Position numbers and translations under genes: made by a program. DNA of 64,000 bases. Origin: Candidatus Thermoflexus japonica (GTDB taxonomy: Bacteria > Chloroflexota > Anaerolineae > Thermoflexales > Thermoflexaceae). Of this stretch, positions 3,013-63,393 are shown piece by piece; position 1 is the stretch's first letter; each line of letters begins with the position of its first letter. The stretch lies in assembly GCA_002898735.1 (NCBI GenBank), contig BEHY01000005.1, positions 4,772 through 68,771 of the forward strand, read 5' to 3'. Under the pieces are notes generated by a model. It had not been told where the DNA came from and did no database searches. It saw nothing but the letters and a program-made list of their open reading frames with translations.

Positions 3013-3015
3013 GGG

Positions 3016-8618: not shown

Positions 8619-8636
8619 CCTCGCTCCGTTCCGAAA

Positions 8637-12922: not shown

Positions 12923-12992
12923 ACGAACGGATCCCCAGTTCCCTGGAGCTCGTCTCTCTTTAACCTTTCCCTCCAGAAAATATGCCCTGGAG

Positions 12993-15629: not shown

Positions 15630-15690
15630 CCCGCTCTCCCCAACGATCCGCTTCTCGAACATGCTGTGCGGTCGCCGTGTGATGAGCAGG

Positions 15691-42518: not shown

Positions 42519-43270
42519 GGCAGCACCTCTGCGGAGAGCCATCCCCCATACCCTGCCTCCCGGAGCGCCTTCAGGACAGACTCGAAATCCAGATGCCCCC
42601 ACCCGGGCGCCCACCGGTTGGAGTCCGCGATATGCACATGGAACAGCCGATCCCCCGCGCGCGCGATGGCCTTCTCCAGGGAGGCCTCCTCGATGTTGGC
42701 GTGGAAAGTGTCCAGCAGCACCCCCACATGGGATCGTCCCACCCGCTCGATGAGGGCCAGCGTTTCCTCGACCGTGTTCAGCAGGTCCGTTTCGTAGCGA
42801 TTGAGAGGCTCCAGCGCCAGCCGAACGGGATACGCAGCGGCCCGATCGGCCAGGTGCGCGATGGCCTCACCCAGCCACGCCAGCGCCCGGCCCCGGTCGA
42901 CGCCGGCCATAAGACGCCCGCGGATCAACCCGATGATCACCAGGCTCCCCCACTCCGCCGCCAGCTCCAGGTGGGCTTCCAGCCGGGCGAGGGCTGCCCG
43001 GCGCACCACAGCATCCGGATGGGTGAGGGACAACCCTTCCTCCACCCACGCCTGACCGGTGCCGATCGCTGGGATCCGCAGCGCATACCGCTCCAGAAGC
43101 GACCGCAGCCGGGGAACCGGAACCATCGCCGGATCCCGCACGGCCAGCTCCACACCGGCATAGCCCAACGCCCGTAGCCGCTCCAGGGTGCGTTCCAGAT
43201 CGTGAACGGCGGCAGCGGCTTCGAAGCGGGTGGGCTGCCAGGAAAGCACAAACGCCAGCGGCCATCCCAT
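42443..43270 (-). CDS. iolO: 5-keto-L-gluconate epimerase-like (xylose isomerase/AP endonuclease 2 fold)
   Basis: AIGTGQA..GLSLTHPD, EPLNRYETD, DTFHANIEE and ADSNRWAPG match Thermotoga IolO as recalled; context supports it. Confidence 0.8.
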   Translation of the reverse strand: MGWPLAFVLSWQPTRFEAAAAVHDLERTLERLRALGYAGVELAVRDPAMVPVPRLRSLLERYALRIPAIGTGQAWVEEGLSLTHPDAVVRRAALARLEAHLELAAEWGSLVIIGLIRGRLMAGVDRGRALAWLGEAIAHLADRAAAYPVRLALEPLNRYETDLLNTVEETLALIERVGRSHVGVLLDTFHANIEEASLEKAIARAGDRLFHVHIADSNRWAPGWGHLDFESVLKALREAGYGGWLSAEVLPQPSLEEAMAQVARWARIALNRSPV

Positions 43271-43274
43271 CCCT

Positions 43275-44096
43275 TCAAACCCCGGCGTAAGCGTTGAACC
43301 CCCCATCGATCGGCACCACCACCCCGGTGACAAAGGCGCTGGCCGGAGAGGCCAGCCAGATCACCGTGCCGATCAGATCCTCCGGGTCTCCGAACCGGCC
43401 CATCGGCGTATGTTCGAGGATCGCCCGGCCCCGCGGGGTCAGGTTCCCCTGCTCATCCAGGAGCAGATATCGATTCTGCCGGGTGAGGAAGAACCCCGGG
43501 GCGATCGCGTTCACACGGATCCTCGGCGAGTATTCCTGGGCCAGATGCACCGCCAGCCACTGGGTGAAATTGCTGACCGCCGCCTTGGCCGCGGCATAAC
43601 CCACCACACGGGTTAAGGGGCGGAAGGCCGCCATGGAGGAGACGTTGATGATGACCCCCTCGCCCGCCTCGACCATCTGTCGGGCGAAAACCTGGCTCGG
43701 GAGGATCGCCCCGCCGAAGAGGTTGAGGGCCACCACCTTCTCCAGGGCCTCCAGCGGCAGATCGAAGAATGAGCGCTCCGGCCCGACCGTGGCCTCCGGC
43801 ATATTCCCCCCCGCCAGGTTGATCAGGATGCTCACCGGCCCCACCTCCCGTCGGACCCGTTCCGCCACCGCTTCGATCTCCGCCCGGTTGAGCACATCCA
43901 TCCGGTAGCCACAAGCTTCCAGGCCCTCCATCTGCAATTCCGCCAGGCGACCCTCCAGGGGGCCGATGTCGGTGAGCACCAGACGGGCTCCCGCCCGACC
44001 CAGGCCTCGAGCGATCGCGCCCGCCAGAACCCCAGCGCCGCCCGTCAGCAACGCGACTTTCCCCTTCAGCGAGAACAGGGTTTCGAGGTAGCTCAT
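43275..44096 (-). CDS. uxuB: SDR family D-mannonate oxidoreductase (fructuronate reductase)
   Basis: TGGAGVL, AGGN, SFFD, YAAAK, GFFLTRQN and DGGFNAYAGV match the Bacillus UxuB/YjmF type as recalled. Confidence 0.75.
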   Translation of the reverse strand: MSYLETLFSLKGKVALLTGGAGVLAGAIARGLGRAGARLVLTDIGPLEGRLAELQMEGLEACGYRMDVLNRAEIEAVAERVRREVGPVSILINLAGGNMPEATVGPERSFFDLPLEALEKVVALNLFGGAILPSQVFARQMVEAGEGVIINVSSMAAFRPLTRVVGYAAAKAAVSNFTQWLAVHLAQEYSPRIRVNAIAPGFFLTRQNRYLLLDEQGNLTPRGRAILEHTPMGRFGDPEDLIGTVIWLASPASAFVTGVVVPIDGGFNAYAGV

Positions 44097-44259
44097 GGCA
44101 CCCCTCCTGAAAGCCTCGTCATCGGATAACAGCCCGCCCGCCATGGTCGGTAGATCGATCCGCCCCCTCTTCCCCGCTCGTGTGGGGAAGAGGAGGGGTC
44201 AGGGCGTTCGTTCCTCGGAAAAAGGGGCGGTCCCTTCCCGGCAGCCCCGAGAACCCCGC

Positions 44260-48374: not shown

Positions 48375-49850
48375 TCAGCCGGACGGGCCGGGATCGATAC
48401 GGGCGCCTCGTCCGTCTCCAGCGGATTTTAGCAGGATTTCCAGATGGCGTTCCAGGTTCTCCCGGATGGCGGCATCGTGTTCCGCCTTGTGGCTCTCCAG
48501 GAGCTCCCGGATCGCAACCCCGCGCTCGCGCAGCAACACGCCATAGGAGATATGGAAGAGCTGCCGCACCGCACGGTCGGCCAGCGCCGCTTCCGGATCG
48601 CCGGGAAGGGCGGAGGGAAGGTCCTCCGGCCGCAACGCGATGGGGTAATCCCGGCGGCTCTCCTCCAGATGCGCGCGGGCGATGGCGTAAAGCTCGGCGA
48701 AGAAGGGCGGGTGCACACGGGCGATGACCCGCACCGCCTGCAACCAGGTGGTCCCGGAGGTCTTCACATGGAAGCAGCCACCGGTCGCCTCCCGGAAGAT
48801 GGGCAGGATGCGGAACTTCTCGCTTCCGGAATGGAGGCTGAGGCGATGGCCCCCGAAGGCCCGCGCGACCGCCGCATGCAGGGTCACGGCGCGGGCGAAG
48901 CGCGCCACGTCTCCCTCATAATCGACGGCCTTCTCGAAGATCCCCGGGAACCGGGGGGCCAGGCTCCAGAGGGCGACTCCTCGCCGCTGCAGATACACGG
49001 CGATGAAGGCGTGGGCTTCCGGGGTCGTTTCCTCCTCCGTCTCATCGACCGACACCTCCAGATCGGCGTCGATTCCCTGATCGCGAAGGATCCCGGCCCC
49101 GCGAACCACGTCCTCCAGGGCCGGCGCATAGCGGCAGGCCGCCGCCTGCAAAGCGGATTCCTGGAGGATCCATGGTCCCTCCGGCGTCTCGAGGCGGCGC
49201 CCGGCCAGCTCAGCGACCACGGATCGGGCCAGAGCGGGGAGCGCCTCCCATGGGCAGGGGCCCCGGGCCAGCGCCCGACGGAGGTCAAAGGTGTAGAGGG
49301 AGTAACCGGCTGCGGCTGCGGCGCGGAGCTGTTCCTCCTCCTGAAGGTGATCGGCGTCCGCTCCGAAGGGACCGGTGTAGCCAGCCTCCAGCACGCCCCA
49401 TACCGCATCCAGCAGGACAGCCTGGAAATCCCGGCCGGTGCGAGCAAGCTCCCGGGGCGACTGCTGAGCCAGCACGGGGAAGACCGGGTATCCCCGCAGG
49501 GCCGCGATCTGCGCAGCGGTCGCCATCCCCAGGCGATCCCCAGCCCCGAAGGACGCCGGCCGGTCGCAGCGCTGGGGAACCAGCGACAGCAGAGACCGCA
49601 GCGCAAGATAGTTGTCCCACATCCAGGGATACAGATTCACCCGATAGCGGCCCACGGGGATCGGCTCAGGGAGCAGCGGAGCAATCCGAAGCGGGAGCTC
49701 GGCCTCTCCCACCCACCCCACGGCCTTCCTCCCGGGACCGCGCGCTGCGAACCACCAGCCCTGTCCGGGGATCTCTCGGAACGAGCCAGGCAGGAGCTGG
49801 AACCCTTTTTCCTGGAGCGCATCCCCCAAGGCCTCCCCAGGGAAGTCCAT
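48375..49850 (-). CDS. uxaE: Tagaturonate/fructuronate epimerase
   Basis: SFGAGDRLG, AQQSPRE, GADADHL, SVDET, SLHSGSEKF and HVKTSGTTWL. Confidence 0.9.
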   Translation of the reverse strand: MDFPGEALGDALQEKGFQLLPGSFREIPGQGWWFAARGPGRKAVGWVGEAELPLRIAPLLPEPIPVGRYRVNLYPWMWDNYLALRSLLSLVPQRCDRPASFGAGDRLGMATAAQIAALRGYPVFPVLAQQSPRELARTGRDFQAVLLDAVWGVLEAGYTGPFGADADHLQEEEQLRAAAAAGYSLYTFDLRRALARGPCPWEALPALARSVVAELAGRRLETPEGPWILQESALQAAACRYAPALEDVVRGAGILRDQGIDADLEVSVDETEEETTPEAHAFIAVYLQRRGVALWSLAPRFPGIFEKAVDYEGDVARFARAVTLHAAVARAFGGHRLSLHSGSEKFRILPIFREATGGCFHVKTSGTTWLQAVRVIARVHPPFFAELYAIARAHLEESRRDYPIALRPEDLPSALPGDPEAALADRAVRQLFHISYGVLLRERGVAIRELLESHKAEHDAAIRENLERHLEILLKSAGDGRGARIDPGPSG

Positions 49851-51251
49851 TCATGCCCCCTTCGAGCGAAATACCTGCGCGGCGAGATCTGGCCGATCCG
49901 TGGTTACAGCATCCACTCCCACAGCCTTCAAGGCCTTCAGGGCAATGGGTTGTTCCTCATGCCAGGAGATAATCCCCAGGCCGCTTGCGTGAACTCGCTT
50001 TACCCAGGTGGAAGTAAGTTGCTCTTCCGGCCGTGCGCTCCGTCCCTCCCAACATGGGTGAACATAATGGGCATCCGCCGCCTCAGCCAGCGCGATGGGA
50101 TCTGTTTCCAGGCCCTCAAACATGATGGATCGGTAAGCCCATGGAAGCACCCGCCGAACAGCGTGCAGGGTCACCGGCTCCCGCGCGCCGAAGATCACAA
50201 AGGGCAACATCCCGGTCTGCTGAACAATAAGGGCAGCAGGCTCCACGGCCTCCGGGGCCTTGAGGTCCAGGTAGGCCCCGAGACCGACCTCCCGGCATAA
50301 CTCCAGCGCTTCTGCCAGTGTGGGGATCTCCGGCCGGGCGATCCGAAGCTCGCTCAGGAAAACGTCCCCAAGGGGCCGCAGGGTTCCATCCAGCCAGCGG
50401 ACCTCCGCATCGTGGTGCAAGACCGGGATCCCATCGGCCGTCACCTGCACGTCCAGCTCGACCGCATCGGCATCATCCATGGCAGCCTGCCGGATAGCAG
50501 CCAGGGTGTTCTCGGGAGCCTTTGCAGAGGCGCCCCGATGGGCAATGATGAGAAGATCCCGTTCCTCCTCCGGGATATCGCGCTCCAGGCGCTCGATGAG
50601 CGTTTGCAACCGCCGGGGGATCTCAAATAGCAGCTCTCGGATCGGGCGGAGGAGTTCCGGGGAGATCTCGAGACGGCGATCGAAGATCCAGGTCGGTGTG
50701 AAAGCCTTGCGGCGCAAATAAGTTCGCGCCAGCCGATCAGTCTGAGGGGATTTAATGGCTGGAAAGCCATAGAGAGGATTCAGCCAGATCCCTCCCGCCC
50801 CGGCCAAGCGTGTGCACTCCCGCAGAGTCCGTGCGGATCGTTCCTGAAACCACGTGGGGCTCGGTGCCATCGCATGCTTGCCGGGCTCCACATACAGGAT
50901 AGGATGTCCATCCTCCAGGGGAATGCGGCCATCTGCAACCATCTCCCGATAGGTGCCGTGCCAGGAGGCCTCCACCCGGACGACCATACCTTCCCTATCT
51001 AAATACACCCAGACGTGCTCCAGCTCATAGAGATGACCGATGTCAGCATCCCACTCAATGGCGTACTCGATCACCTGACAGGCAGGAGGTTCCACCATCA
51101 ACCGGCGGGGGAAAGTCGGAGAGAAAGTCCCCCGATCCAATACCGCATAGCCTACCCCTTCGACCCGGAAAGGCTCCGCCCGGTCCAGGAGGAGAACGGG
51201 GGTATGTCGGAGCGCCAGATGATGGAGATCTGAGCCTCGATCCCAGCTCAT
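49851..51251 (-). CDS. Fusion of an uncharacterised N-terminal domain (about 230 aa) and a glycerophosphodiester phosphodiesterase
   Basis: GDPD motifs IAHRGAS, PENT, ELDVQ and LHHD; N-terminal domain with GHLYELEH, ASWHG and GKHA. Confidence 0.85.
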   Translation of the reverse strand: MSWDRGSDLHHLALRHTPVLLLDRAEPFRVEGVGYAVLDRGTFSPTFPRRLMVEPPACQVIEYAIEWDADIGHLYELEHVWVYLDREGMVVRVEASWHGTYREMVADGRIPLEDGHPILYVEPGKHAMAPSPTWFQERSARTLRECTRLAGAGGIWLNPLYGFPAIKSPQTDRLARTYLRRKAFTPTWIFDRRLEISPELLRPIRELLFEIPRRLQTLIERLERDIPEEERDLLIIAHRGASAKAPENTLAAIRQAAMDDADAVELDVQVTADGIPVLHHDAEVRWLDGTLRPLGDVFLSELRIARPEIPTLAEALELCREVGLGAYLDLKAPEAVEPAALIVQQTGMLPFVIFGAREPVTLHAVRRVLPWAYRSIMFEGLETDPIALAEAADAHYVHPCWEGRSARPEEQLTSTWVKRVHASGLGIISWHEEQPIALKALKAVGVDAVTTDRPDLAAQVFRSKGA

Positions 51252-51252
51252 C

Positions 51253-52350
51253 CTACGAACGCCCGATCAGGACTCCGGTGTGAGGATCGAACAGGTAAAG
51301 ATGTGCAGGATCGAAATGGAGGCCGACGATGTCTCCGACCTTCCAGGGGAAGGGTGGAGGAACCAGGGCCCGCAACCGGAGGCTTCCGATGCGCAGATTA
51401 ACCAGCACATCCCGCCCCAACGGTTCGATCACGTAGACCTCAGCCCGGAGCTCACCCTCCTCCGAGGGAGCCAGGCGAACATGCTCCGGGCGAACGCCAA
51501 GGATCAATCGGTCCCTATCCCGGACGGCCTCAGCCCACGATTTCAACCCCTCCGGAAGAGTTACATGCCATTCAGGGCCAGTGAGGCGAAGGGCGCTCCC
51601 ATGAACCGTTAAAGAGCCTTCCAGGAAGTTCATCGGCGGGCTGCCGATGAATTCCGCAACGAAGAGGTTTGCCGGGCGGGTGTAAAGGGCCTCCGGGGTG
51701 TCGAACTGCTGGAGGACGCCCTGATTGAGCACGGCGATGCGGTCAGCCATGGTCATTGCTTCCACCTGGTCATGGGTCACGAAGATCGTGGTGATGCCCA
51801 ATTCCTTTTGAAGGCGCTTGATCTCAGCGCGGGCCAGGAGCCGAAGGCGGGCGTCCAGGTTCGAAAGCGGCTCATCAAGCAGCAACAGATCTGGCTCTTT
51901 CGCGAGGGCGCGGCACAGGGCCACCCGCTGCTGCTGGCCGCCGGAGAGCTGACCCGGGCGTCGATCGAGGAGCTCCTCGATCTGAAGCAGCTGGGCCGCC
52001 GCCACCACCCGTCGATGGATCTCAGCACGGGGCATACGCCGCAGGGTCAATGGGAAGGCGATGTTTTCATAAACGGTCATGTGGGGATAGAGAGCGTAAC
52101 TCTGAAATACCATCCCGATGTTACGCTCCCTGGGGGGCAGATCATTAACCACCTTCCCATCAAACCGAATCCAACCATGCGTCGGTCGGTAGATGCCCGC
52201 CACGGTCAGGAGGACCGTGGTCTTACCGCATCCAGAGGGCCCGAGAAGGGCGACAAATTCTCCATCCATGATCTCGAGGCTCAGGTCCTGCACTGCCACC
52301 ACCTTGCCGAAACGCTTGGTCAGGCGCTCAATGCTCACCCGCATTTGCAC
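51253..52350 (-). CDS. CUT1 ABC transporter ATPase (MalK/InoK-like)
   Basis: GPSGCGKT, LSGGQQQRV, LLLDEPLSNLD and TOBE domain. Confidence 0.95.
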   Translation of the reverse strand: MQMRVSIERLTKRFGKVVAVQDLSLEIMDGEFVALLGPSGCGKTTVLLTVAGIYRPTHGWIRFDGKVVNDLPPRERNIGMVFQSYALYPHMTVYENIAFPLTLRRMPRAEIHRRVVAAAQLLQIEELLDRRPGQLSGGQQQRVALCRALAKEPDLLLLDEPLSNLDARLRLLARAEIKRLQKELGITTIFVTHDQVEAMTMADRIAVLNQGVLQQFDTPEALYTRPANLFVAEFIGSPPMNFLEGSLTVHGSALRLTGPEWHVTLPEGLKSWAEAVRDRDRLILGVRPEHVRLAPSEEGELRAEVYVIEPLGRDVLVNLRIGSLRLRALVPPPFPWKVGDIVGLHFDPAHLYLFDPHTGVLIGRS

Positions 52351-52408
52351 TCCCCCTCTTCCAGGAACACTTGTATGTTTGGTGAGCGCTTTTCTGGCAA
52401 AGTTTAAC

Positions 52409-53242
52409 TTAACCTTTTACCCCTCCGGCATAAATCTGCAACAGATATCGCTGGGTGAACAGGAAGAACAAAAGCACCGGCAGGACATAGAACAGGCCCG
52501 CAGCGGCGATCACCCCGTAATTCACGAACAGGATTTCCCCTGCCCCACCCGCGGTGACGCTGCGAATGAAGACGGAGAGGGTCCAGTTGCGCGCGCTGGG
52601 CATGTAAATATAGGGGAGCAGGAATTCATTCCATCCCAGGACAAAGGCAAAGACCGCTAAGGCTGCGATGCCAGGGCGGACCATCGGGATCATCACCCGA
52701 CGCCAGGCCTGGAGGCGGGAGCAACCATCAATCAACGCGGCCATCTCGATATCCCACGATACGTTGTCGAAGAACCCTTTCATCACCCAGACCCCCAGCG
52801 GAAGCTCCAGGGCAGTTTTCACCAGGGCCACCCCGATTAAGGTGTCGTAAAGCCGTAAAGCCCGCAGGACATAGAAGATGGCAATCAACAGGGTGATGCT
52901 GGGGAAGGCATGAAGGACCAGGACCAGCATCATGAAAAAGCGGCGGCCGCGAAAAGAGAGCCGGGAGAGCGCATAGGCAGCAGTGGAGGAGATCAGCAAC
53001 AGGATCACGGTGTAACCGCCCGCCAGCAAAGTGGAATTCAACGCCGCCACCCAGATGCTGGGACGGTTCCCCCACGGAGTGAACAGGAAGCTCCAGTTCG
53101 ACAGAGTGAAGCCCTCCGGGATTAACCCATGAGTACGGGGGGAGAAGGCCCCAATGAACAGCCAGGCATATAAGAGCAGCAGCGGCAGGGAGAGAGCTGC
53201 CAGGATCAGATAGGGCGTGCCCTTCTTGATCCAGTTTCCCAT
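52409..53242 (-). CDS. CUT1 ABC permease (MalG/InoG-like)
   Basis: EAA loop IEMAALIDG; WNEFL. Confidence 0.92.
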   Translation of the reverse strand: MGNWIKKGTPYLILAALSLPLLLLYAWLFIGAFSPRTHGLIPEGFTLSNWSFLFTPWGNRPSIWVAALNSTLLAGGYTVILLLISSTAAYALSRLSFRGRRFFMMLVLVLHAFPSITLLIAIFYVLRALRLYDTLIGVALVKTALELPLGVWVMKGFFDNVSWDIEMAALIDGCSRLQAWRRVMIPMVRPGIAALAVFAFVLGWNEFLLPYIYMPSARNWTLSVFIRSVTAGGAGEILFVNYGVIAAAGLFYVLPVLLFFLFTQRYLLQIYAGGVKG

Positions 53243-53243
53243 C

Positions 53244-54233
53244 TTACACCCCTTCGATCTTTGGCTCGCTCATCATCTCCTGAAATCGGAAAACCCGCAG
53301 ATAAATCACCGAAGCCACCACCCCGATGGCCACCAGGACCGCGGCCAACGCAGCCCCGAACCCGAATTGCACGTTGCCAAAGTAATTGGAAAGGGCCTGA
53401 TGATAGGCATAAAGGGCCCAGACCTCCGTCCGATAAAACCCGGGCCCACCCTCCGTGAGCAGCAGGATATATTCAAACGAGGCCAGGAGGGAAAGCGTCT
53501 GATAAGCCGTCACGAACATGATCGGCCATCGGATCAGCGGCAGGATGATCCGTCGGATGATCTGCCAGGTGGTGGCTCCATCCACCTGGGCCGCCATGAT
53601 GTAATCCGGTGGGATCGCCTTGATGGCCGAGGTGAAGATGATCATCCCCAGTGAGGCCCCGACAAATCCATTGGCGAGAATAATCACTCCCCACGGCTGC
53701 GTGGTCAACCAGTTGCGCGAAGGAAGCCCGAGCGGACCCAGAACCTGATTCAGGGTCCCGAAGGGAGCAGGAGCCGTCGCCCAGGTCCATAATAACGCGT
53801 AGACAACGGAAGGGGTGACGCGAGGCAGCAACCAGAGAGCTCGAAAGAGAACCCCTACCCGCTCCTCGATATGTGTGGTTAACAGAGCGAGGATGAGGCC
53901 CATTCCGACGTTAAAAGTTAACGTTGCGGAAACATAGAGAAGTGTGTTCTGGAGGATCCGTGAAGTATAGGGGCTGCGCAGGATCCGCAAATAATTACTA
54001 AATCCGATGATCTCGGTTCGGCCCAGGGTCGCCACGCTCATATTGGTCATGCTGATCCAGAAGGTGAGAAGGACAGGAGCGACAAAAAACAGGAGCACAA
54101 TCAGGGCCGCCGGACTCAAAAAGAGGAGGGCGGCCACTCCCTGTTTGGAGACCCCGGGCCGAATCCGCAGGAGGGGGAGGGAAAATCCCCTCCCCCTCTT
54201 CGCCACTTCCAGCTCCCGTTCCACCTGCCTCAT
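53244..54233 (-). CDS. CUT1 ABC permease (MalF/InoF-like)
   Basis: EAA loop YIMAAQVDGA; six TM segments. Confidence 0.92.
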   Translation of the reverse strand: MRQVERELEVAKRGRGFSLPLLRIRPGVSKQGVAALLFLSPAALIVLLFFVAPVLLTFWISMTNMSVATLGRTEIIGFSNYLRILRSPYTSRILQNTLLYVSATLTFNVGMGLILALLTTHIEERVGVLFRALWLLPRVTPSVVYALLWTWATAPAPFGTLNQVLGPLGLPSRNWLTTQPWGVIILANGFVGASLGMIIFTSAIKAIPPDYIMAAQVDGATTWQIIRRIILPLIRWPIMFVTAYQTLSLLASFEYILLLTEGGPGFYRTEVWALYAYHQALSNYFGNVQFGFGAALAAVLVAIGVVASVIYLRVFRFQEMMSEPKIEGV

Positions 54234-55675
54234 CGGATGATCACCTTATCCCCCAAACGGGCCTGAAGCTCCTTCACCACCATCTCAACCGCCTGGTCCG
54301 GCTTCATCTCCCCGCCCATGACGGCGGACAAAGCCGTCCAGACCACCTCATCATAGGCCGAGAAGTCAGCATGGTTGGGCGCGTAAGTAGCATATTCCAC
54401 CATATAGGCGGTCTGCTGCAGGAACTGGGCCTTCTTATACTCCGGGTCGTCGAGCTGGGTCTTCAGGATCGCGAGGTGAGCGCTTTGCACCGCGTGGCGG
54501 GTGTTGAGTTCGGGCGTGGTGGCCATGGCAATCAGTCGGAAGGCCAGTTCCTGGTTCTTCTTTCCGCTCGCCTTCTCCGAGGTCACCATATAAACCAGAG
54601 GGTGGGAAAGGGTGGTGGGCTTTTGCCCAGGCTCGCCCGCCGGGATCAGGGCGAAACCGATGTTCGCCCACAGATCCGGCTCCTGGCGGCCGAACTGGGT
54701 CAGCCACTGACCCCAGTGCCACGTTCCACCGTTCCAGAAGAGCACCTGATCCCCTGCACTCACCGTCTGATGCCAGGTGCTCCAGTCAGTTCCAATGAAG
54801 TTCTTCGGTGTGGTTCCATAGGTGAACACCGTGTCGTAATGGAACTGGAAGTGCTTCCGGAGGGCCTCCTGGACCAGCACGAGCTTCCCGGTCTGAGGAT
54901 CCTGCAACTGACCGCCGAAGGCGATGTAGAACTGATAGAAATCCAGCCCCCGACGTGGGCGGGTCCAGTAGCCGTAACCCGGCTTCACCACCCCTTTATC
55001 CTGAGCTTCCTTAGCGACCCGGAGCAGATCCATAAGGGTGAACTGGCCGGTTCGGATCCGCTCGGGCAGGGCCTGGATTTCCTCATCGGACCAGCCCAGC
55101 TTCTTCAGAAGCGTCTTGCTGAAAAACATCGGGCGGGCTTCTGTGTCCTGAGGAACTGCCCAGCGCTGGCCCTTATAGGTCACGGCGTTCCAGAGGGTGG
55201 GGAAGATATCCTTAAGCCCCGTCTGGGCTTCATATTTCCGGATCCAATCGTCCAGAGGGACAATGAACCCGGCTTCGGACCACGGTGCTGTGTCCTCATG
55301 GCCGCTCAGGATGATATCCGGCGCATTGCCTGCCTGAGCGGCCAGGATGAACCGCTGGCGGTATTCATCCCATGTGCTGGTGTCGAAGCTGGCATCTACC
55401 TTCACCCGGATGTTTGACCCCTCCGCTTCAAGGGCCTTATTCAGGGCCTCCGCCGCCGCCGTCAGATTGTCTGCCCGAAAATGAGAGGCCTGCTCCGGTC
55501 CTATCGTCCACGCTGTCAGAACCACCTCCCTGGGTGGCGGGGTTGGCGTAGGAGGAGCTGGGGTCGCTGCAGGGGGTGGAGCCGCCGGCGTCGCCGTGGG
55601 AGGCGCTGGTGTGGGGGCCGGCGCACATGCGACCAGAGCCAATACCATGCCGAGGATCAGAAGCCAACGGGCCAT
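54230..55675 (-). CDS. CUT1 solute-binding lipoprotein, InoE-like (inositol-phosphate or phosphodiester)
   Basis: Lipobox LVAC, Pro/Ala/Thr linker, AWTIGP, PQDTEARP and TLSHPLVY resemble Thermotoga InoE as recalled. Confidence 0.8.
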   Translation of the reverse strand: MARWLLILGMVLALVACAPAPTPAPPTATPAAPPPAATPAPPTPTPPPREVVLTAWTIGPEQASHFRADNLTAAAEALNKALEAEGSNIRVKVDASFDTSTWDEYRQRFILAAQAGNAPDIILSGHEDTAPWSEAGFIVPLDDWIRKYEAQTGLKDIFPTLWNAVTYKGQRWAVPQDTEARPMFFSKTLLKKLGWSDEEIQALPERIRTGQFTLMDLLRVAKEAQDKGVVKPGYGYWTRPRRGLDFYQFYIAFGGQLQDPQTGKLVLVQEALRKHFQFHYDTVFTYGTTPKNFIGTDWSTWHQTVSAGDQVLFWNGGTWHWGQWLTQFGRQEPDLWANIGFALIPAGEPGQKPTTLSHPLVYMVTSEKASGKKNQELAFRLIAMATTPELNTRHAVQSAHLAILKTQLDDPEYKKAQFLQQTAYMVEYATYAPNHADFSAYDEVVWTALSAVMGGEMKPDQAVEMVVKELQARLGDKVIIR

Positions 55676-55703
55676 GGCAACCTCCCTCTTTTTTGTGGGG
55701 GAT

Positions 55704-55878
55704 TTTAACTTGACATTGTTAAATTCGGGCTCTTTGACCTCTCCCAACTGCCAAGGACGGCCTTGTAGCGCAGGCTGAAAGCCTGCGCCGCGGGCGCAAG
55801 CCCGCGTTCACCGTCTTATACGGCGGAAGCCCGTGCTACGTCACGGCGGCACGGCAAATCTAACAATATCAAGTTAAT
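55704..55878 (-). repeat. Structured intergenic element: 23-bp AT-rich inverted repeat enclosing GC-rich hairpins and REP-like GTAG units
   Basis: 55705-55727 pairs with 55855-55877 (20 Watson-Crick plus 3 G-U pairs on the minus strand); internal hairpins at 55768-55788, 55789-55806, 55811-55823 and 55831-55846. Confidence 0.65.
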
Positions 55879-55942: not shown

Positions 55943-56917
55943 TCACATCGGGTAGTGCAGCTCATACAGGCTCCGCCAGCCAGGCTCGAAGGGCATCTTG
56001 AGGTAGGGCTCCAGCATCTCCCGCTCCCGCTCCGTCACCCCCTCCAGCGGCGGCAGCTTCCCCGGCGGGAAGGCCTCCAGGATGTCCCGAACCAGTTTCT
56101 CCAGGTAATCGAGCAGCTGCTCCACCCCCGGCTTCGCCTTCTCGGCGCTGGCCAGGGTCGCCTTCCCCACCACGCCCGGCTGGTAGGCCTTCACCTCAAT
56201 CGGCCGCAGGCCCACCTGCGCATACCAGGCGATGGGCTTGCGCAGCAGATTCCCCGCCTTGTCGATGTGCTCGCTATCCGTGGGCAGGAAACTGTAAGGC
56301 TCCGTGTCCACCGCATCCTCCATGCGGATGAACTCCGGGAACAGGGCCAGGCTCCAGCTGGTCTCCACCTCATCCCCATGGATGAAATGGGTCTCGTAGG
56401 GGCCGCCTTCGGACTTCAACTTGAAGTGATCGGGGATCGCGTGATACCAGTTGACGTTGACGATGATCGCCGGCACCTTGTAGGTCTTGGCGAAGCGGTG
56501 GATGGCGATGGGGATCACATATTCCTGCCCGTGGCCGTTCAGGATGATCTGCTTGCGGAATCCCGCGTTCCAGAACCCGGCGATGATCGCCGTCAGCATC
56601 CCGACGAACACGTCCTCGGGCACCACGATGGTCCCCGGCATCCCCATGTGGTGATACGGGTGGGAGCCGAACCACAGCGGCTGGCTCACCGTGCACCCTG
56701 TCCGCAGGGCCACCTGCTCCGCCATCCGGGTGACCAGGAAGACGTCCTCCCCGTAAGGCGCATGGGGGCCATGGGCCTCCGTGGCCCCGACCGGGATGAT
56801 GATCAGATCGTTCTGCTTCAGGCGCTCCATGACCTGTTTGCCGGTCATGTTCTGGAAGTAAATCCCCGTCGGCCGATCCATATGGCCGCCTTCCGGTGGG
56901 ATCTGCCACTTGCTCAT
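55943..56917 (-). CDS. iolN: Creatininase-family hydrolase, 3-dehydro-scyllo-inosose hydrolase-like
   Basis: RPTGIYFQNMT, PVGATEAHGPH, NGHG and HGDEVETS; resembles Thermotoga IolN as recalled. Confidence 0.8.
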   Translation of the reverse strand: MSKWQIPPEGGHMDRPTGIYFQNMTGKQVMERLKQNDLIIIPVGATEAHGPHAPYGEDVFLVTRMAEQVALRTGCTVSQPLWFGSHPYHHMGMPGTIVVPEDVFVGMLTAIIAGFWNAGFRKQIILNGHGQEYVIPIAIHRFAKTYKVPAIIVNVNWYHAIPDHFKLKSEGGPYETHFIHGDEVETSWSLALFPEFIRMEDAVDTEPYSFLPTDSEHIDKAGNLLRKPIAWYAQVGLRPIEVKAYQPGVVGKATLASAEKAKPGVEQLLDYLEKLVRDILEAFPPGKLPPLEGVTEREREMLEPYLKMPFEPGWRSLYELHYPM

Positions 56918-57003
56918 CGCGAAACCTCCACGCGTTTGTGTGAGGATCTGCACCGGGAAGCCCCCGTTCAGGGGACAGAATGGCCCCTCCCTTCACCCCC
57001 CTC

Positions 57004-58029
57004 TCACGCGGGCACCATCATCACTTTCACCGCCTCTCCCCGGCGTAAATGCTCCAGCCCCTCCCCGAAGCGGGATAACGGCAGGCGATGGGTGACGAGC
57101 TCCTCCGGACGGATCACCCCCCGCTCCAGCATCTGGATGGCCAGGGGGAAGGTGTGGCGACCGACATAGCTGCCCACCACCCGGATCTCCCGGCGGGTGA
57201 TGTCATACTGGGCGATCTCCGCCCGGGCCCGGGCGTTCATCCCGAAGAGGATCACCGTTCCCCCCGGCCGCACCAGCCGCAGGGCGGTCCCCATCAACGA
57301 GCCCACCGCATCCACGACCACATCCGCCCCGATCCCCGTGACCTCCCGAACCAGCCCCTCCAGATCCTGCTCCCGGGGGTCCACGGCCCAATCCGCCCCC
57401 GCCCGCCGCGCGAACTCCAGGCGGAACGGCGCGATATCGGCGGCGATGAGACTCCCGGCCCCACTCGCCCGAAGGATCTGAAGGAACAGCAATCCCACCG
57501 GCCCGCAACCCAGCACCACCGCATGCTCCCCCGGATGCAAACGGGCGTGAAGGGTTCCGCCCACCACCGTGGAAACCACCTCGGTGAAGATCGCCCGCTC
57601 CAGGGGGACCTCCGGGGAGATCGGGAAGAGGGCCCGGGCAGGGGCCACCTCGTAAGGGGCCAGGCCGCCATCCAGGAAAATCCCCAGCGTGGTGAACCGC
57701 TCGCAGTGGTTGTAAAGCCCCCGCTGGCAGAAGCGACAGACCCCGCAATACAGATTTGGAGCCACCGCGACCCGATCCCCCGGCCGCAGATGGGTCACCG
57801 CCGGACCGACCTCCACGACGCGGCCGATGACCTCATGGCCCAGGACCACCCCGGGGGTTGCGGGATGCCCGGGGGGGACCTCCAGGATATGCAGATCCGT
57901 GCCGCAGATCCCGCAGGCCTCCACCTGGAGGAGAACGTCATCCGGGTTCCGCAACGAAGGGACCGGCCGCTCCTCCAGCGCCCAACGTCCTTCTCCCAGG
58001 AACACCACCGCTGGCATCCGCTCGGCCAT
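57004..58029 (-). CDS. Zn-dependent medium-chain (polyol) dehydrogenase
   Basis: CGICGTD, GHE, structural Zn site CGVCRFC...C and GCGPVG. Confidence 0.9.
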   Translation of the reverse strand: MAERMPAVVFLGEGRWALEERPVPSLRNPDDVLLQVEACGICGTDLHILEVPPGHPATPGVVLGHEVIGRVVEVGPAVTHLRPGDRVAVAPNLYCGVCRFCQRGLYNHCERFTTLGIFLDGGLAPYEVAPARALFPISPEVPLERAIFTEVVSTVVGGTLHARLHPGEHAVVLGCGPVGLLFLQILRASGAGSLIAADIAPFRLEFARRAGADWAVDPREQDLEGLVREVTGIGADVVVDAVGSLMGTALRLVRPGGTVILFGMNARARAEIAQYDITRREIRVVGSYVGRHTFPLAIQMLERGVIRPEELVTHRLPLSRFGEGLEHLRRGEAVKVMMVPA

Positions 58030-58045: not shown

Positions 58046-59248
58046 TCAGGCGGTCGCGGCGGCCGCCGGCTCGGCTTCCGGCACCGCCCGCAGATCCGGC
58101 TTGATGGTGATCTTCGCGTCGATCCGCTGGCTCAGCCGCTCCACCGCCTCCACCGCCCGATCCAGGGGATAGCGGGCGGTGATGATGCGGGTCATATCGA
58201 TCAGCCCGGCGGCCATCATCCGGATCACGCTGGGGAAGATGGCATCGCCCGAATGGCCCTGGGAGCCGAAGATCTGCCCCCGCCGCACCTGCAGGACCTC
58301 CAAGTAGAGCGGCACCCGCTCGGCGGCCCGGCCGATCACCACGATCCGCCCGTTGATCGCCAGGGCCTTCTCCATCTCCGGCAGCGTCCGTGGGGGAGCC
58401 CCCGCCGCCTCCACCAGCACATCCGCCCCTTCCCCACGGGTCGCCTCCCGGATCGCCTCGCTGGGGGCCACCTCCCGGGGATCGAAGGCCGCATCCGCGC
58501 CCATCCGCAGCGCCATCTCCCGCCGCGAAGGGCTCACGTCGAAGGCCAGCACCTTCCCGGCGCCCGCCGCCCGGGAGAGGGCGATGGCCGCCAGGCCGAT
58601 GGGCCCTGCCCCGAAGACCGCCACATAGGCTCCGGGGCGGAACCCGCCCGCGCGGACAAAGAGCCCATTGTAGGCCACACTGGTCGGCTCCACCAGGGAA
58701 CCCGCTTCGTAAGCCCGGTCGACATCCCCGTAGCGCTCGGCGATGGCGTCGATCTTCCAGCAGTATTTGGCTTTGACGGCCACATACTCCGCCATGGCCC
58801 CCGGGACCGTGAAGCCCAGCTCCTCCAGGTTGGTGCAATGGTTGAAGAAGCCGCTGCGGCAGGGCGTGCAGACCCCACACCACAGCATCTCTTCGGAAGT
58901 CACCATATCCCCCGGCCGCAGATCCCGCACCTCCTTCCCCACCGCGACCACTTCCCCGGAGAACTCGTGGCCCGGGATCACGGGGAACTTCACCAGGCCG
59001 GGATACAGGATGTAGCCCTCCGCATCGGTCTCATAGAAATGCAGATCCGACCCGCATACCCCGCAGGCCTTCACCCGGATCACCACCTCATCCGGGCCCG
59101 GCGCGGGATCCGGGACCTCCTGGATCGAGAACCGGGGATGCCGCCAGATGCTGGACCCCGTGATCGCCTTGCCCGTCTCCCGCTCCCAATCCGAAAGCGG
59201 ATAATCCGGACGCGGATCCCACTTCGCCTCCACCACCACGGCTTTCAT
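58046..59248 (-). CDS. iolM: Zn-dependent scyllo-inosose 3-dehydrogenase-like
   Basis: Distinctive N-terminus AKWDPRP...WRHP and CGSDLHFYETDAEGYILYPGL, as recalled for Thermotoga IolM; GHEFSG. Confidence 0.82.
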   Translation of the reverse strand: MKAVVVEAKWDPRPDYPLSDWERETGKAITGSSIWRHPRFSIQEVPDPAPGPDEVVIRVKACGVCGSDLHFYETDAEGYILYPGLVKFPVIPGHEFSGEVVAVGKEVRDLRPGDMVTSEEMLWCGVCTPCRSGFFNHCTNLEELGFTVPGAMAEYVAVKAKYCWKIDAIAERYGDVDRAYEAGSLVEPTSVAYNGLFVRAGGFRPGAYVAVFGAGPIGLAAIALSRAAGAGKVLAFDVSPSRREMALRMGADAAFDPREVAPSEAIREATRGEGADVLVEAAGAPPRTLPEMEKALAINGRIVVIGRAAERVPLYLEVLQVRRGQIFGSQGHSGDAIFPSVIRMMAAGLIDMTRIITARYPLDRAVEAVERLSQRIDAKITIKPDLRAVPEAEPAAAATA

Positions 59249-60015
59249 GGCTTTCCCTCCTCCGGAAGGGTGATCCCGCCAGCAATGAGCTCCGCGACCA
59301 TCTCCGGCGAGACATCGGTTTTGCGGAAGTCCCCGATCTTGCGCCCGTGGCTTAAGATGACCAGACGATCCGCCACCGGATAGACGTGATAGATGTTATG
59401 GGTGATGAAGATCACCGAGAGGCCCCGCCGGCGGACTTCCTCCACATACCCCAGCACCTTGCGGGTCTCTTTGATCGAGAGCGCGGAAGTGGGCTCATCG
59501 AGGATCAGCAGGCGCACACCGAAGTGGAGGGCGCGGCCGATCGCGATCGATTGTCGCTCCCCACCCGACAGCACGGAGACGGGCTCCCATACCGAACGGA
59601 CCCGGATGCCGATCTCCTCCAGCACCTGACGAGTGACCTGCTCCATCTCCCGCATATCGAGGAATGAGAAAGGCCCGACCCGCCGCACCGGCTCCCGGCC
59701 CAGGAAGAAGTTCCGGGCGATGCTCATCATCTCCACCAGGGCCAGATCCTGGTAAACGGTCTCAATGCCCAGCGCTCGCGCCTCGCGGGGCGAGCGGAAG
59801 CGAACCGGACGGCCCTCGAAGTAGATCTCGCCGTCATCCGGCGGGTAGACCCCGGTCAGGACCTTGATCAGCGTGGATTTCCCGGCGCCGTTATCCCCCA
59901 GGAGGCCGACCACCTCCTGATAGCCCACGGCGAAATCCACCCCGGCCAGGGCCTCCACACCGTCGAACCGCTTGACGATCCCGCGCATCTCCACCAGCCA
60001 GCGCCCTTCGCTCAT
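59245..60015 (-). CDS. CUT2 ABC transporter ATPase (single NBD)
   Basis: GDNGAGKST, LSGGERQ and LILDEPT. Confidence 0.93.
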   Translation of the reverse strand: MSEGRWLVEMRGIVKRFDGVEALAGVDFAVGYQEVVGLLGDNGAGKSTLIKVLTGVYPPDDGEIYFEGRPVRFRSPREARALGIETVYQDLALVEMMSIARNFFLGREPVRRVGPFSFLDMREMEQVTRQVLEEIGIRVRSVWEPVSVLSGGERQSIAIGRALHFGVRLLILDEPTSALSIKETRKVLGYVEEVRRRGLSVIFITHNIYHVYPVADRLVILSHGRKIGDFRKTDVSPEMVAELIAGGITLPEEGKP

Positions 60016-60095
60016 CGTCGCTCCTCGTTTCCATCCCGCATCCACGCGATGGGGCCGGAAAGGGCGTGGGCGCCCCGGATGCCAGATCGAGCGCC

Positions 60096-61154
60096 TCACC
60101 CCGACCGTCGGATCCGCAGGTTGATGATCACCGCTCCGACCAGCACCAGCCCGATGAACGCGCGATACCAGTAGGCCGGCGCGCCGGCCAGCACCAGGCC
60201 GTTGCGGACCATCCCCACGATCAGCGCCCCGAGCACCGTGCCGATCACGCTCCCATAGCCCCCCGTGAGCAGGGTCCCGCCGGTCACCGTGGCCGCAATC
60301 GCTTCCAGTTCGACTCCTTCCCCTCGCAGGGGATCCACCGATCCGAAGCGGCTGAACTGGATGATGCCCGCCAGGGCGGCCAGGACCGCGGTGAGGATGA
60401 ACCCGATCTGCTTCACCCGCGCCACCTCCACCCCCAGGGCTCGGGCCGCCTGGGGGTTGCCCCCCGAAGCGAAGATCGCGTTCCCGAAGGGCGTGCGGGT
60501 GAGAACGAGGGTGGCGATCAGCGCAACCGTCAGGAACCAGAGGGCAGAGGCATGGAAACCACCGGGGAGCCGGCCGGAGAGAACGAACATAAGAAGGGAT
60601 TTCCCCTCATAGGCGATGGGAAACCCGCCGGTCACCGCCAGGAGCACCCCCCGCCAGAACATCATGGACCCCAGGGTAACGATGAATGAGGGGAGCCGCC
60701 CGCGGGTCACCACCCAGCCGTTCAGCGCCCCGATCGCCGCCGCCAGGGAGAGGGCCGCCAGGAACGCGAGGAGATGAGGGATCCCGGCCCGGGCCATCAG
60801 CGCGAACGCCATCGCCGAGACCCCCAGCACGGAGCCCACCGAGAGATCGAATTCCCCGGCGATCATCAGCAGCGTGACGCCAATCGCCACCAGCCCCAGC
60901 TCCGCGGCGATGGTCATGATCCCGGCCAGAGAGTCCAGGGTGAGGAAGTAGGGGGCCGCGATCGCAAAGCCGAGAAAGACAGCGAGGAAACCGGCCAGCG
61001 CCCCCACCTCCGGGTATCGCCGCAGCTCCGCCAGGGAAATCCCTCGTATCCGCCGGCGGGCCTGCGCCTGCACACGCGCCTCAACCGCTTGCGGATCCAT
61101 TGCGGACGCACTCAACCATGGGTTCATCGGGACCTGCGCCTGCTGGGCCCCCAT
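60096..61154 (-). CDS. CUT2 ABC permease (RbsC-like)
   Basis: GEFDLSVG, FIVTLG, GGNPQAARALG and ELEAIAATVTGG. Confidence 0.93.
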   Translation of the reverse strand: MGAQQAQVPMNPWLSASAMDPQAVEARVQAQARRRIRGISLAELRRYPEVGALAGFLAVFLGFAIAAPYFLTLDSLAGIMTIAAELGLVAIGVTLLMIAGEFDLSVGSVLGVSAMAFALMARAGIPHLLAFLAALSLAAAIGALNGWVVTRGRLPSFIVTLGSMMFWRGVLLAVTGGFPIAYEGKSLLMFVLSGRLPGGFHASALWFLTVALIATLVLTRTPFGNAIFASGGNPQAARALGVEVARVKQIGFILTAVLAALAGIIQFSRFGSVDPLRGEGVELEAIAATVTGGTLLTGGYGSVIGTVLGALIVGMVRNGLVLAGAPAYWYRAFIGLVLVGAVIINLRIRRSG

Positions 61155-61226
61155 CGGGAAAGCCAGATCCCCCCGCTCTCCTTCTCCGCCTCCCCCGCGC
61201 CTTTCAGGCCACAGGGAGGAGAGAGG

Positions 61227-61312
61227 GGCTGCAGGGACACCGAAGGCGCCCCGCAGCCCCAGAAGCCTCCGGAGGGGATTTGCTCGCGCAGCGGCTTCGT
61301 CCCGCGAGCGGG
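61227..61312 (-). repeat. Intergenic hairpins between the solute-binding protein and permease genes, possible mRNA-stability elements
   Basis: GGGGCTGC...GCAGCCCC stem and GCTCGCG...CGCGAGC stem. Confidence 0.4.
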
Positions 61313-61320
61313 CCCCAGGT

Positions 61321-62301
61321 TTAACGGATGCCCTGCTTGATCAGCTCCTCCACCTGGCTCACATTGTCCTTATCCACAAAGCCCGGCCCGGTCAGCACGT
61401 CGTTGGCCGGCCGCAACCCATATTTCTTGTAGAGATAGAGCCAGGTGATGGCCATGTAACCCTGCAGGTATTGCTGCTGATCGATGGCGAACAGCGTCAC
61501 CCCTTCCTTGATCGCCGACAGCGTCCCGGGGTGCAGATCGAACGTCCCATGGAGCACCTTGCCGACCAGGTTGTTCTCCTTCAGGAACTTCACCGCCGGG
61601 TCCGTGCCCAGGGGGCCGAGGGTGAGGAGGGCATCCGTATCCGGGTTGCGGGTGAAGTAAGCCTTGAGGGCCTCCACCGCCTTGGTGGGATCCGTGCCGA
61701 TGTCCAGCTTCTCCACCGGCACGTTCTTCTCCTTCATCCCATCCAGGAAGCCCTGACAGCGGGCCTCCAGGCCCACGTGGCCAACCTCGTGGATGGCGCA
61801 CACGGCCCGTTTGGGCGTGCGCACGGCGAGCATCCGCTGGGCCGCCCGGAGCCCGCCCAGATACTCATCCATGCCGATGTAGAACATATACGGGATGCGC
61901 TCTCCCTCCGGGCGCGGATCGGCGACGTTGATCGCCACCACCGGGATGCCCTGCTGGATCGCCCGACGCAGCGGCTCATCGAGGGCCTTGGGGTCTGTGA
62001 TGGTCACCGCCAGCCCGTCCGGCCTGGCGGCGATGGCGCTGTTGAGGAGGTTCACCAGCTCCTGGATGGAGAACTTCTCCGGCCCGAAGTATTTCGCTTC
62101 CACCGGATAAACCTTCGCGGCGTCGTTCATCCCTTTGATCACCACCCCCCAGAAGGGATCGGCAGGGCCGCCGTGGGAGACGATGTAAAACGTGAACTCC
62201 TTCTTCGGGGGAGCGGCGGCAGGCGTGGCCGGGGCGCACGCCCCCAGCAGCAAGCCCAGGACCAGGAGAATGGGAATCCACCGGCGGACGGTGCGAATCA
62301 T
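61321..62301 (-). CDS. CUT2 (periplasmic binding protein type 1) sugar or polyol-binding lipoprotein
   Basis: Lipobox LLGAC; SHGGPADPFW, GMDEYLGG and IDQQQYLQGY; ATGA overlap with the LacI gene. Confidence 0.9.
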   Translation of the reverse strand: MIRTVRRWIPILLVLGLLLGACAPATPAAAPPKKEFTFYIVSHGGPADPFWGVVIKGMNDAAKVYPVEAKYFGPEKFSIQELVNLLNSAIAARPDGLAVTITDPKALDEPLRRAIQQGIPVVAINVADPRPEGERIPYMFYIGMDEYLGGLRAAQRMLAVRTPKRAVCAIHEVGHVGLEARCQGFLDGMKEKNVPVEKLDIGTDPTKAVEALKAYFTRNPDTDALLTLGPLGTDPAVKFLKENNLVGKVLHGTFDLHPGTLSAIKEGVTLFAIDQQQYLQGYMAITWLYLYKKYGLRPANDVLTGPGFVDKDNVSQVEELIKQGIR

Positions 62302-63368
62302 GGCAACCTCCTTTCAGCCAGAAGGTGGGGAACTACCGGGATGGAGCCTTCCGGGGGTGGGCCGCATGAGGCCCGCTCCACCAGACGGCAGGGCAGCTGC
62401 AGCTGAGGAGAGACCCGCTCCCCCTGCAGCAGGCGGAGCAGCATGCTCATAGCGGTCCGCCCCATCTCATACTTGGGCTGGGCGATCGTCGTGAGAGGGG
62501 GTTCCGTGTAGGCGGCGAAGAGGATATCATCAAAGCCGATAATCGAAAGGTCCTCCGGAACCCGCAGCCCCGCGACTCGGGCAGCCCGAAGGGCCCCGAT
62601 CGCCGTCATATCGTTGTAGCAGAACACGGCCGTCGGCCGGACCGGGGCCTCCAGCAGGCGTTGAATGCCCCACTCCCCGGCCTCCGGCCGGCCGTTTCCT
62701 TCCACAACCCATGCGGGATCCGGCGGGATGCCTGCGGCCGTGAGAGCCTCCTGATAACCCGCCCGCCGCAACCGATCTGAGCGGGCCATGGGGGGGCCGC
62801 TGATGTAAGCGATGCGGGTGTGGCCCAGGCGCATCAGATACGAAACCGCCAGCACCGCCCCCTGATAGCTGTCCGAGGCGACGGAATAAATGAGCGGCGC
62901 CTCCCGCTGCTGATTAATGAGCACAATGGGGACCCCGAGGGCTTCCAGATAGGGGAGGTAGAGCTCGCCGACGCGAGAGGAGGCCACGATCACGCCCTCC
63001 ACCCGGCTCTCCGCCAGGGCCCGCACCGCGGCCAGCTCCCGCTCCGGATCGGCGTTGGAGGTGGCCAGGAACAGGCGATAGCCCGCCTCCAGGGCCACTT
63101 CCTCCACGCCGCGGACGATCTCCGCCAGAAAGGGATCCGCCAGGGTGGTGATGACCAGGCCGATGATGGATGTGCGGGTGGTGACCAGGCTCCGCGCGGC
63201 CGCGTTGGGCACATAGCCCATCCGCGCCGCCAGCCGACGGATCCGCTCGGCCGTGCGGGGATTGACCAGGGGGCTCCCCCGCAACGCCCGCGAGACCGTG
63301 GAGTGGGAGACGCCAGCCCTTCGCGCGATATCCTTGATCGAAACCCGCCGGGAAGCGCGTCGGCCCAT
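62298..63368 (-). CDS. LacI family transcriptional regulator
   Basis: SIKDIARRAGVSHSTVSRAL HTH, YVPN hinge, FCYND and GFDD. Confidence 0.95.
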   Translation of the reverse strand: MGRRASRRVSIKDIARRAGVSHSTVSRALRGSPLVNPRTAERIRRLAARMGYVPNAAARSLVTTRTSIIGLVITTLADPFLAEIVRGVEEVALEAGYRLFLATSNADPERELAAVRALAESRVEGVIVASSRVGELYLPYLEALGVPIVLINQQREAPLIYSVASDSYQGAVLAVSYLMRLGHTRIAYISGPPMARSDRLRRAGYQEALTAAGIPPDPAWVVEGNGRPEAGEWGIQRLLEAPVRPTAVFCYNDMTAIGALRAARVAGLRVPEDLSIIGFDDILFAAYTEPPLTTIAQPKYEMGRTAMSMLLRLLQGERVSPQLQLPCRLVERASCGPPPEGSIPVVPHLLAERRLP

Positions 63369-63377
63369 CGGAGGAAT

Positions 63378-63393
63378 TTGCACACGTGTGCAA
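63378..63393. promoter_or_regulatory. LacI-type operator (perfect 16-bp palindrome)
   Basis: TTGCACACGTGTGCAA with central CG, immediately downstream of the -10 element. Confidence 0.75.

Follow-up and report, generated by a model that had tools for sequence, protein, structure and literature searches.

Here, a zinc-dependent medium-chain dehydrogenase/reductase (MDR) of 341 amino acids is identified as a candidate inositol dehydrogenase in Candidatus Thermoflexus japonica, a hot-spring bacterium in which no IolG, the usual inositol dehydrogenase of the Gfo/Idh/MocA family, was found. The gene lies at 57004..58029 on the minus strand of the window, meaning the whole 64,000-nucleotide stretch analysed (contig BEHY01000005.1, positions 4,772 to 68,771; G000:C5:4772-68771 in our handles, where G, C and L numbers denote genomes, contigs and loci). 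The MDR very likely belongs to inositol catabolism, and its sequence and setting suggest that it is probably a NAD-dependent inositol dehydrogenase that performs the first step as a non-orthologous replacement of IolG. The original prediction, made from the letters of the window, had offered two roles for the gene: it would either stand in for IolG or bring a different cyclitol into the pathway. This pair of options is strongly supported by the comparative evidence, with IolG replacement favoured.

The MDR open reading frame (ORF) begins with ATG, 7-8 nt downstream of a GGGAGGA ribosome-binding site, and encodes an ADH_N domain (PF08240, 102 bits) and an ADH_zinc_N domain (PF00107, 97 bits). 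All ligands of the catalytic zinc (C42/H65/E66/E150) and of the structural zinc (C95/C98/C101/C109) are present and, like the glycines of the dinucleotide motif G174-x-G176-x-x-G179 (GxGxxG), are invariant in 93/93 members of the clade described below; position 198, which follows strand beta-2, is D or E in 93/93 members. An acidic residue at 198 is the usual mark of a preference for NAD over NADP, suggesting NAD as the cofactor. By its domains, both zinc sites, the GxGxxG motif and this acidic residue, the protein is a genuine zinc-dependent MDR. Together with NCBIfam identification of the flanking genes, these features bear out the earlier claim that a second MDR with intact catalytic and structural zinc ligands sits between iolM and iolN.

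No NCBIfam model claims the MDR at its cut-off. The top model is that of IolM, the scyllo-inosose 3-dehydrogenase of the same operon, and assignment to IolM was rejected on its score (NF041097, 219 bits, cut-off 450), on 35% identity to the operon's own IolM and on placement in a separate clade. L-threonine 3-dehydrogenase was likewise rejected (NF003808, 190 bits, cut-off 380; TIGR00692, 172 bits, cut-off 458), while matches to L-idonate 5-dehydrogenase (139 bits) and to sorbitol dehydrogenases are also sub-threshold. Membership of the IolG family requires the Gfo/Idh/MocA Rossmann domain and at least 355 bits to TIGR04380, and the MDR protein matches neither PF01408 nor TIGR04380; as judged from its sequence, it is an analogue of IolG and not a member of that family. 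The AlphaFold model (predicted local distance difference test score 90.2, predicted template modelling (TM) score 0.88) has the polyol/threonine dehydrogenase fold, with TM scores of 0.86-0.90 and 27-35% identity to threonine, sorbitol and idonate dehydrogenases and Thermus TADH (0.88-0.90 for threonine and sorbitol dehydrogenase structures), and a TM score of 0.82 to IolM TM0412 (3IP1). Foldseek, a PDB sequence search and the ESM Atlas returned generic MDR relatives or names and no substrate clue, and public databases name the numerous close homologues (55-61% identity) only as alcohol, threonine, butanediol or sorbitol dehydrogenases.

The window holds no Gfo/Idh/MocA gene, as first stated in the original prediction, and PF01408 matches in the whole assembly are confined to contigs C2, C12 and C36. 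The highest TIGR04380 score in the source genome is 117 bits against the cut-off of 355, for gene C2:92845-93774; this gene scores 213 bits as UDP-GlcNAc 3-dehydrogenase, has genes for a DegT aminotransferase and a UDP-GlcNAc 2-epimerase on either side, and is therefore taken to be a nucleotide-sugar gene. The other two weak PF01408 matches were discarded as a sugar transferase and a Rex-like protein. With the source assembly at just 90% completeness (175 contigs), the search was widened to the genus. TIGR04380 at E ≤ 1e-40 gave no match in any of 15 Thermoflexus genomes (the source and 14 congeners, one of them closed), while IolN, the 3-dehydro-scyllo-inosose hydrolase of the pathway, was found in 14/15 and the MDR beside IolN in 13/15; completeness is 76% and 84% for the two genomes in which the MDR is missing. 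The closed genome (G311, 3.3 Mb) likewise has this gene as its only Gfo/Idh/MocA member, ~377 kb away from the island.

These searches bear on the proposal that a conventional Gfo/Idh/MocA enzyme performs the first step, either an IolG in the unassembled 10% of the genome or a moonlighting nucleotide-sugar-type gene, and that the MDR is an unrelated passenger. Enzymes of the Gfo/Idh/MocA family are frequently promiscuous, and a fragmented assembly could conceal a gene, but an IolG missing from all 15 genomes including the closed one, a lone family member in a nucleotide-sugar setting and an MDR that holds its place in iol operons across phyla make this proposal barely credible.

The MDR is embedded in an inositol island, the features of which are as follows.

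63432-63404, minus strand: near-consensus promoter, TTGACA-17-TATCAT.
63378-63393, minus strand: 16-bp palindrome TTGCACACGTGTGCAA, a likely LacI operator predicted from sequence.
62298..63383, minus strand: LacI-family repressor, the first gene of the operon (profile matches).
59245..62301, minus strand: CUT2-type ATP-binding cassette (ABC) importer, comprising binding protein (61321-62301), permease (60096-61154) and ATPase (59245-60099).
58046..59248, minus strand: IolM, scyllo-inosose 3-dehydrogenase, second oxidation (NF041097, 584 bits, cut-off 450).
57004..58029, minus strand: the MDR, candidate inositol dehydrogenase (ADH_N and ADH_zinc_N domains, invariant zinc ligands, clade membership).
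55943..56953, minus strand: IolN, 3-dehydro-scyllo-inosose hydrolase, ring opening (NF041098, 543 bits, cut-off 245; Creatininase fold).
49851..55747, minus strand: cassette of a CUT1 ABC importer and a GDPD phosphodiesterase, between iolN and uxaE.
48375..49850, minus strand: UxaE, tagaturonate epimerase (PF16257, 384 bits; 491 amino acids, no NCBIfam match).
47273-48325, minus strand: D-2-hydroxyacid dehydrogenase (profile matches).
45679-47163, minus strand: FGGY kinase (profile matches).
44260-45678, minus strand: Gnd (profile matches).
43275-44144, minus strand: mannonate-oxidoreductase-like (UxuB-like) short-chain dehydrogenase/reductase (SDR; profile matches).
42443..43333, minus strand: IolO, 5-keto-L-gluconate epimerase (NF041099, 324 bits, cut-off 300).

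The genes stand here in island order, all on the minus strand, with a tartronate-semialdehyde-reductase-like gene listed last, after IolO. The island lies behind a single strong promoter, no strong internal terminator was found in the operon, and only 16 bp separate the iolM stop from the MDR and 50 bp the MDR from the iolN start. Named candidate genes cover every step from scyllo-inosose on (IolM, IolN, IolO, UxaE, the UxuB-like SDR, the kinase and Gnd). Only the first oxidation is left without a gene, and the MDR is the sole unassigned oxidoreductase between importer and IolN, which makes it the candidate for that step. In the mechanism proposed, the substrate would enter via the CUT2 importer encoded upstream, and the catalytic zinc (C42, H65, E66, E150) would polarise an inositol hydroxyl while hydride passes to NAD+. 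The MDR would in this way oxidise inositol, most simply at the axial C2 hydroxyl of myo-inositol, to scyllo-inosose; IolM would then oxidise the neighbouring carbon, IolN would cleave the diketone to 5-dehydro-L-gluconate, and IolO, UxaE, the SDR, the 2-hydroxyacid dehydrogenase with the kinase, and Gnd would bring the carbon to the pentose-phosphate pathway.

The predicted operator was also used in a genome-wide search for a co-regulated gene. The sole near-copy (2 mismatches, chance level) has no dehydrogenase behind it, so that neither this nor the TIGR04380 search turned up the co-regulated iolG elsewhere that would have spoken against a replacement. The near-copy itself (G000:C28:5616-5631; L187:3017-3032) precedes a different LacI-family gene by 6 bp, with the gene for a CUT1 binding protein next in line; the LacI genes of the island and of G000:C28 are paralogous repressors with similar operators, and cross-talk between them is possible.

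The CUT1/GDPD cassette is absent from six Thermoflexus-like metagenome contigs (L093-L098) and from the closed genome G311, where IolN is followed directly by UxaE. The cassette thus looks like a recent insertion here, and IolM-MDR-IolN is the stable core of the island. At 49851-55747 it perhaps serves to scavenge glycerophosphoinositol-type esters. At many other loci (L115-L120, L143, L188) UxaE follows IolO or IolN. Metatranscriptome contigs of 4.7-5.1 kb and ~90% identity carry an unbroken iolN-MDR-iolM block in three hot-spring RNA libraries from separate studies, and a fourth hot-spring library covers the block in two contigs with the break just before the iolN start. These contigs are a weak hint that the block is expressed in nature, given that DNA carry-over is possible and that a contig is not proof of one transcript.

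The importer raises the question of which cyclitol is consumed. The best match of the CUT2 binding protein is the model of a rhizopine (inosamine) catabolism binding protein (NF052284, 264 bits), and a PDB search with it gave only generic sugar-binding proteins; PDB entry 4RU1 is presumably an inositol complex. The rhizopine match lends something to the second role in the original prediction, in which the MDR is a dehydrogenase for another cyclitol (scyllo-inositol, D-chiro-inositol, quercitol, pinitol or inosamine) that is funnelled to scyllo-inosose, with myo-inositol not a substrate of the operon or handled differently. The score, however, is well under the cut-off of 420; the gained CUT1/GDPD cassette would be expected to free myo-configured inositol from its esters; and the MDR is the only candidate for the first dehydrogenase in Thermoflexus and in such cases as locus L147 and genomes G320 and G383. 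A different cyclitol as the substrate is consequently judged rather unlikely, although genomes that hold two enzymes, considered below, are to its credit.

Replacement of IolG by the MDR is a proposal that extends well beyond Thermoflexus. A total of 80 genome and 80 metagenome loci, plus loci from whole-genome searches, were sampled, and neighbours were labelled by tblastn with the window proteins and with reference Iol proteins verified against NCBIfam. In a FastTree phylogeny of 236 MDR-superfamily sequences from the fetched loci, the window MDR falls in a 93-member clade (support 98); the IolM proteins form a clade of their own (48 members, support 99), and generic MDRs likewise fall outside. 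Identity to the window MDR is 41-61% outside Thermoflexus, and the lowest identity in the clade is ~37-41%. Residues at least 90% conserved inside the clade and at most 25% elsewhere comprise L49, P52, P53, H55, P56, A57 and G60, in the loop just after the catalytic cysteine, as well as T114, Q274, T278 and E302. The window MDR carries the signature loop H47-I-L-E-V-P-P-G-H55-P-A-x-x-G60 and is a member of the clade by tree placement, signature residues and location in an inositol cluster.

IolM or IolN lies within 6 kb in 55/92 other clade members, usually in the order IolM-MDR-IolN(-IolO), a cassette seen at dozens of metagenome loci, with IolM-IolN-MDR and MDR-IolM-IolN as variants. Classical iol genes are found within 6 kb in 9/92 (2 of them also among the 55), flanks are too short to judge in 14/92, and neither type is within 6 kb in 16/92, several of which have IolE or IolM at 6-8 kb. 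Dereplication at 80% identity leaves 43 lineages, of which 32 have iol genes in the locus (IolM/IolN 23, classical 7, both 2) and 11 have none. The classical setting is exemplified by L147, where IolD (934 bits), the MDR (54% identical), IolE, IolC (351 bits) and IolB (321 bits) follow one another in this order, with no Gfo/Idh/MocA gene within 10 kb; L002, L006, L007, L090, L092 and L157 resemble it, with the MDR in iolD-E-C-B-type clusters. Since IolE and IolM both take scyllo-inosose, the classical and IolM/IolN routes have nothing in common except transport and the formation of scyllo-inosose from inositol. An MDR conserved in both pathway types is therefore best placed at this reaction.

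Several loci depart from the common layouts. At L006:9980-11683 (Acidobacteriota) the MDR homologue (52% identical) lies within a 567-residue ORF directly after an IolE-like gene, the result of a gene fusion that adds a C-terminal extension or else of an assembly frameshift. L080 (Thermodesulfobacteriota, ~800-16000) is unusually dense in zinc dehydrogenases, with six or more MDR paralogues grouped about an IolN homologue (63% identical). L008, from a Chloroflexia metagenome-assembled genome, encodes LacI, UxaE, an SDR, a LarA_N-like protein, Gnd, PfkB, an MDR, a true IolG, IolN and IolM at 2611-14507; here a LarA-type putative epimerase and the PfkB kinase replace the 2-hydroxyacid dehydrogenase and FGGY kinase of the window.

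The distribution of the two enzymes was compared in an even set of 301 genomes of the host's class (MDR clade at E ≤ 1e-80, IolG at E ≤ 1e-95), among which IolN is present in 119, the MDR clade in 41 and IolG in 137. Of 27 IolN genomes with the MDR, 20 are without IolG and 7 have it; of 92 IolN genomes without the MDR, 13 are without IolG and 79 have it. The 20 MDR-positive, IolG-negative genomes span six genera (Thermoflexus, g173 and the genera of G374, G383, G396 and G413). The odds ratio linking MDR presence to IolG absence is 17 by genome and 7.6 by genus (6/6 vs 7/53, p=0.006), and these ratios are descriptive only because related genomes are not independent. Position tells the same story: ~48 of the genomes without the MDR have a true IolG no more than 10 kb away from IolN on one contig, and in G320, G383 and G311 the MDR takes the place near IolN that IolG holds elsewhere.

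The same data address a further alternative, that IolM alone carries out the two oxidations, from inositol through inosose to the diketone, and that the MDR acts elsewhere, either on 5-dehydro-L-gluconate or tagaturonate in the manner of L-idonate 5-dehydrogenase or as a redox-balancing side enzyme. The sub-threshold matches of the MDR to L-idonate 5-dehydrogenase and sorbitol dehydrogenases fit such a role, as does the lack of both MDR and IolG over 9 kb around at least one IolM-IolN-IolO-UxaE locus (L181), but the genome of L181 is only 84% complete. Furthermore, the clade also occurs in classical iolD-E-C-B clusters, which have no IolM and make no 5-dehydro-L-gluconate, and a dedicated IolG is kept in 79/119 IolN genomes, often adjoining IolN, from which it follows that IolM is normally not sufficient. 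That IolM does both is thus very unlikely. The 13 IolN genomes with neither MDR nor IolG were considered as possible evidence that IolM suffices and proved uninformative: in most of them IolN is on a short contig, or is a high-scoring homologue that stands alone with neither IolM nor IolO in its vicinity. IolN homologues form two score classes (~435-548 bits and ~290-340 bits), and in two genera a high-scoring IolN stands alone, with no IolM, IolO, MDR or IolG within 8-9 kb (G354:C90, G431:C70, G524:C22 and G411:C11; loci L176, L185, L177 and L179). Such a lone IolN may serve a different substrate.

Several observations weigh against a simple replacement of IolG by the MDR. In six genera, a total of seven IolN genomes encode a true IolG in addition to the MDR, as a rule at separate loci. 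The genome of L002 (Ardenticatenaceae) has IolG (362 bits) ~21 kb from the MDR, and L008 pairs a distant clade member (38% identical) with true IolG, IolN and IolM. The two enzymes hence do not always exclude each other and may prefer different isomers. Corynebacterium glutamicum has multiple isomer-specific inositol dehydrogenase paralogues (PMC9603128), and by analogy with this multiplicity, which is also the pattern expected if the MDR served another cyclitol, myo-inositol may not be the preferred isomer of the MDR. At a few loci the MDR has Gfo/Idh/MocA neighbours that are not IolG (110-175 bits), and these could be the real inositol dehydrogenases there. Genus g173 (G361:C73:18941-21676; G320:C58) has two IolN copies, one in an IolM-MDR-IolN-IolO-UxaE cassette and a second with a Gfo/Idh/MocA gene ~1.5 kb away that scores below a TIGR04380-level IolG. 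The TIGR04380 cut-off is strict, and functional inositol dehydrogenases of other subgroups would be missed by it in paralogue-rich genomes; related genomes are non-independent samples; and the metagenome loci were retrieved via the MDR itself. Finally, the gene, its residues, its place in the operon, the missing IolG and the genomic company of the family are observed, and the reaction, the cofactor and the substrate isomer are inferred.

Comparison with characterised enzymes places the proposed function among known chemistries. IolG (EC 1.1.1.18; TIGR04380; Thermotoga maritima TM0414, Bacillus subtilis IolG) shares with the MDR the proposed reaction, the pathway and the place in the operon, since in most IolN genomes of the class it adjoins IolM and IolN at the position held here by the MDR, but the two are unrelated in fold and chemistry: IolG is metal-independent and uses a Lys-Asp-His triad (PMC9603128), whereas the MDR is a two-zinc enzyme without a PF01408 domain. 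IolM of the Thermotoga pathway (NF041097; TM0412, PDB 3IP1) is, like the MDR, a zinc MDR enzyme that acts on a cyclitol and is encoded in the same operon. The MDR is nevertheless ~60 residues shorter than IolM, lacks its N-terminal extension and inserts, and has P52/H55/P56/T114/Q274/T278/E302 where IolM has D/Y/I/E/L/Q/A. The polyol/threonine dehydrogenase branch of the superfamily (L-threonine 3-dehydrogenase, sorbitol dehydrogenase, L-idonate 5-dehydrogenase, Thermus TADH 4CPD and Sinorhizobium meliloti 4EJ6) has its fold, zinc sites and NAD-binding domain in common with the MDR, which is set apart from it by 27-35% identity, family-model scores below the cut-offs, the clade-specific loop and an inositol rather than a threonine or sorbitol context. 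In antibiotic biosynthesis, zinc MDR enzymes such as the 2-deoxy-scyllo-inosamine dehydrogenase NeoA and the AcbL/ValN reductases oxidise or reduce ring hydroxyls of cyclitols. These enzymes are biosynthetic while the MDR is proposed to be catabolic. The Thermotoga inositol pathway was reportedly set out by Rodionova et al. in 2013. Details of that pathway are used here partly as given in citing papers (PMC5931981, PMC9603128).

The pathway, the reaction and the existence of cyclitol-acting MDR enzymes are thus already known, and a catabolic MDR-type inositol dehydrogenase family in place of IolG appears to be undescribed; literature searches for such an enzyme found nothing relevant, which is not proof of absence. 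The window MDR is the cleanest case of the family, from a genus without any IolG. It is fairly likely that this unnamed, widespread zinc MDR family constitutes a second, unrelated type of inositol dehydrogenase that has repeatedly displaced IolG, in both IolM/IolN and IolE/D/B/C pathways, across Chloroflexota, Acidobacteriota, Actinomycetota, Bacillota, Rhodothermota and other phyla.

With reaction and pathway already known, the advance is incremental rather than conceptual. If the proposal is true, bacteria begin inositol catabolism with either of two unrelated enzymes, and the family would be a source of thermostable, metal-dependent inositol dehydrogenases for the production of scyllo-inosose or scyllo-inositol. 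Annotation pipelines and gap-filling tools know only the Gfo/Idh/MocA type and would score Thermoflexus-like organisms as lacking the pathway. A named family with signature residues would, on the same proviso, mend many annotations and explain inositol use by genomes that are free of IolG.

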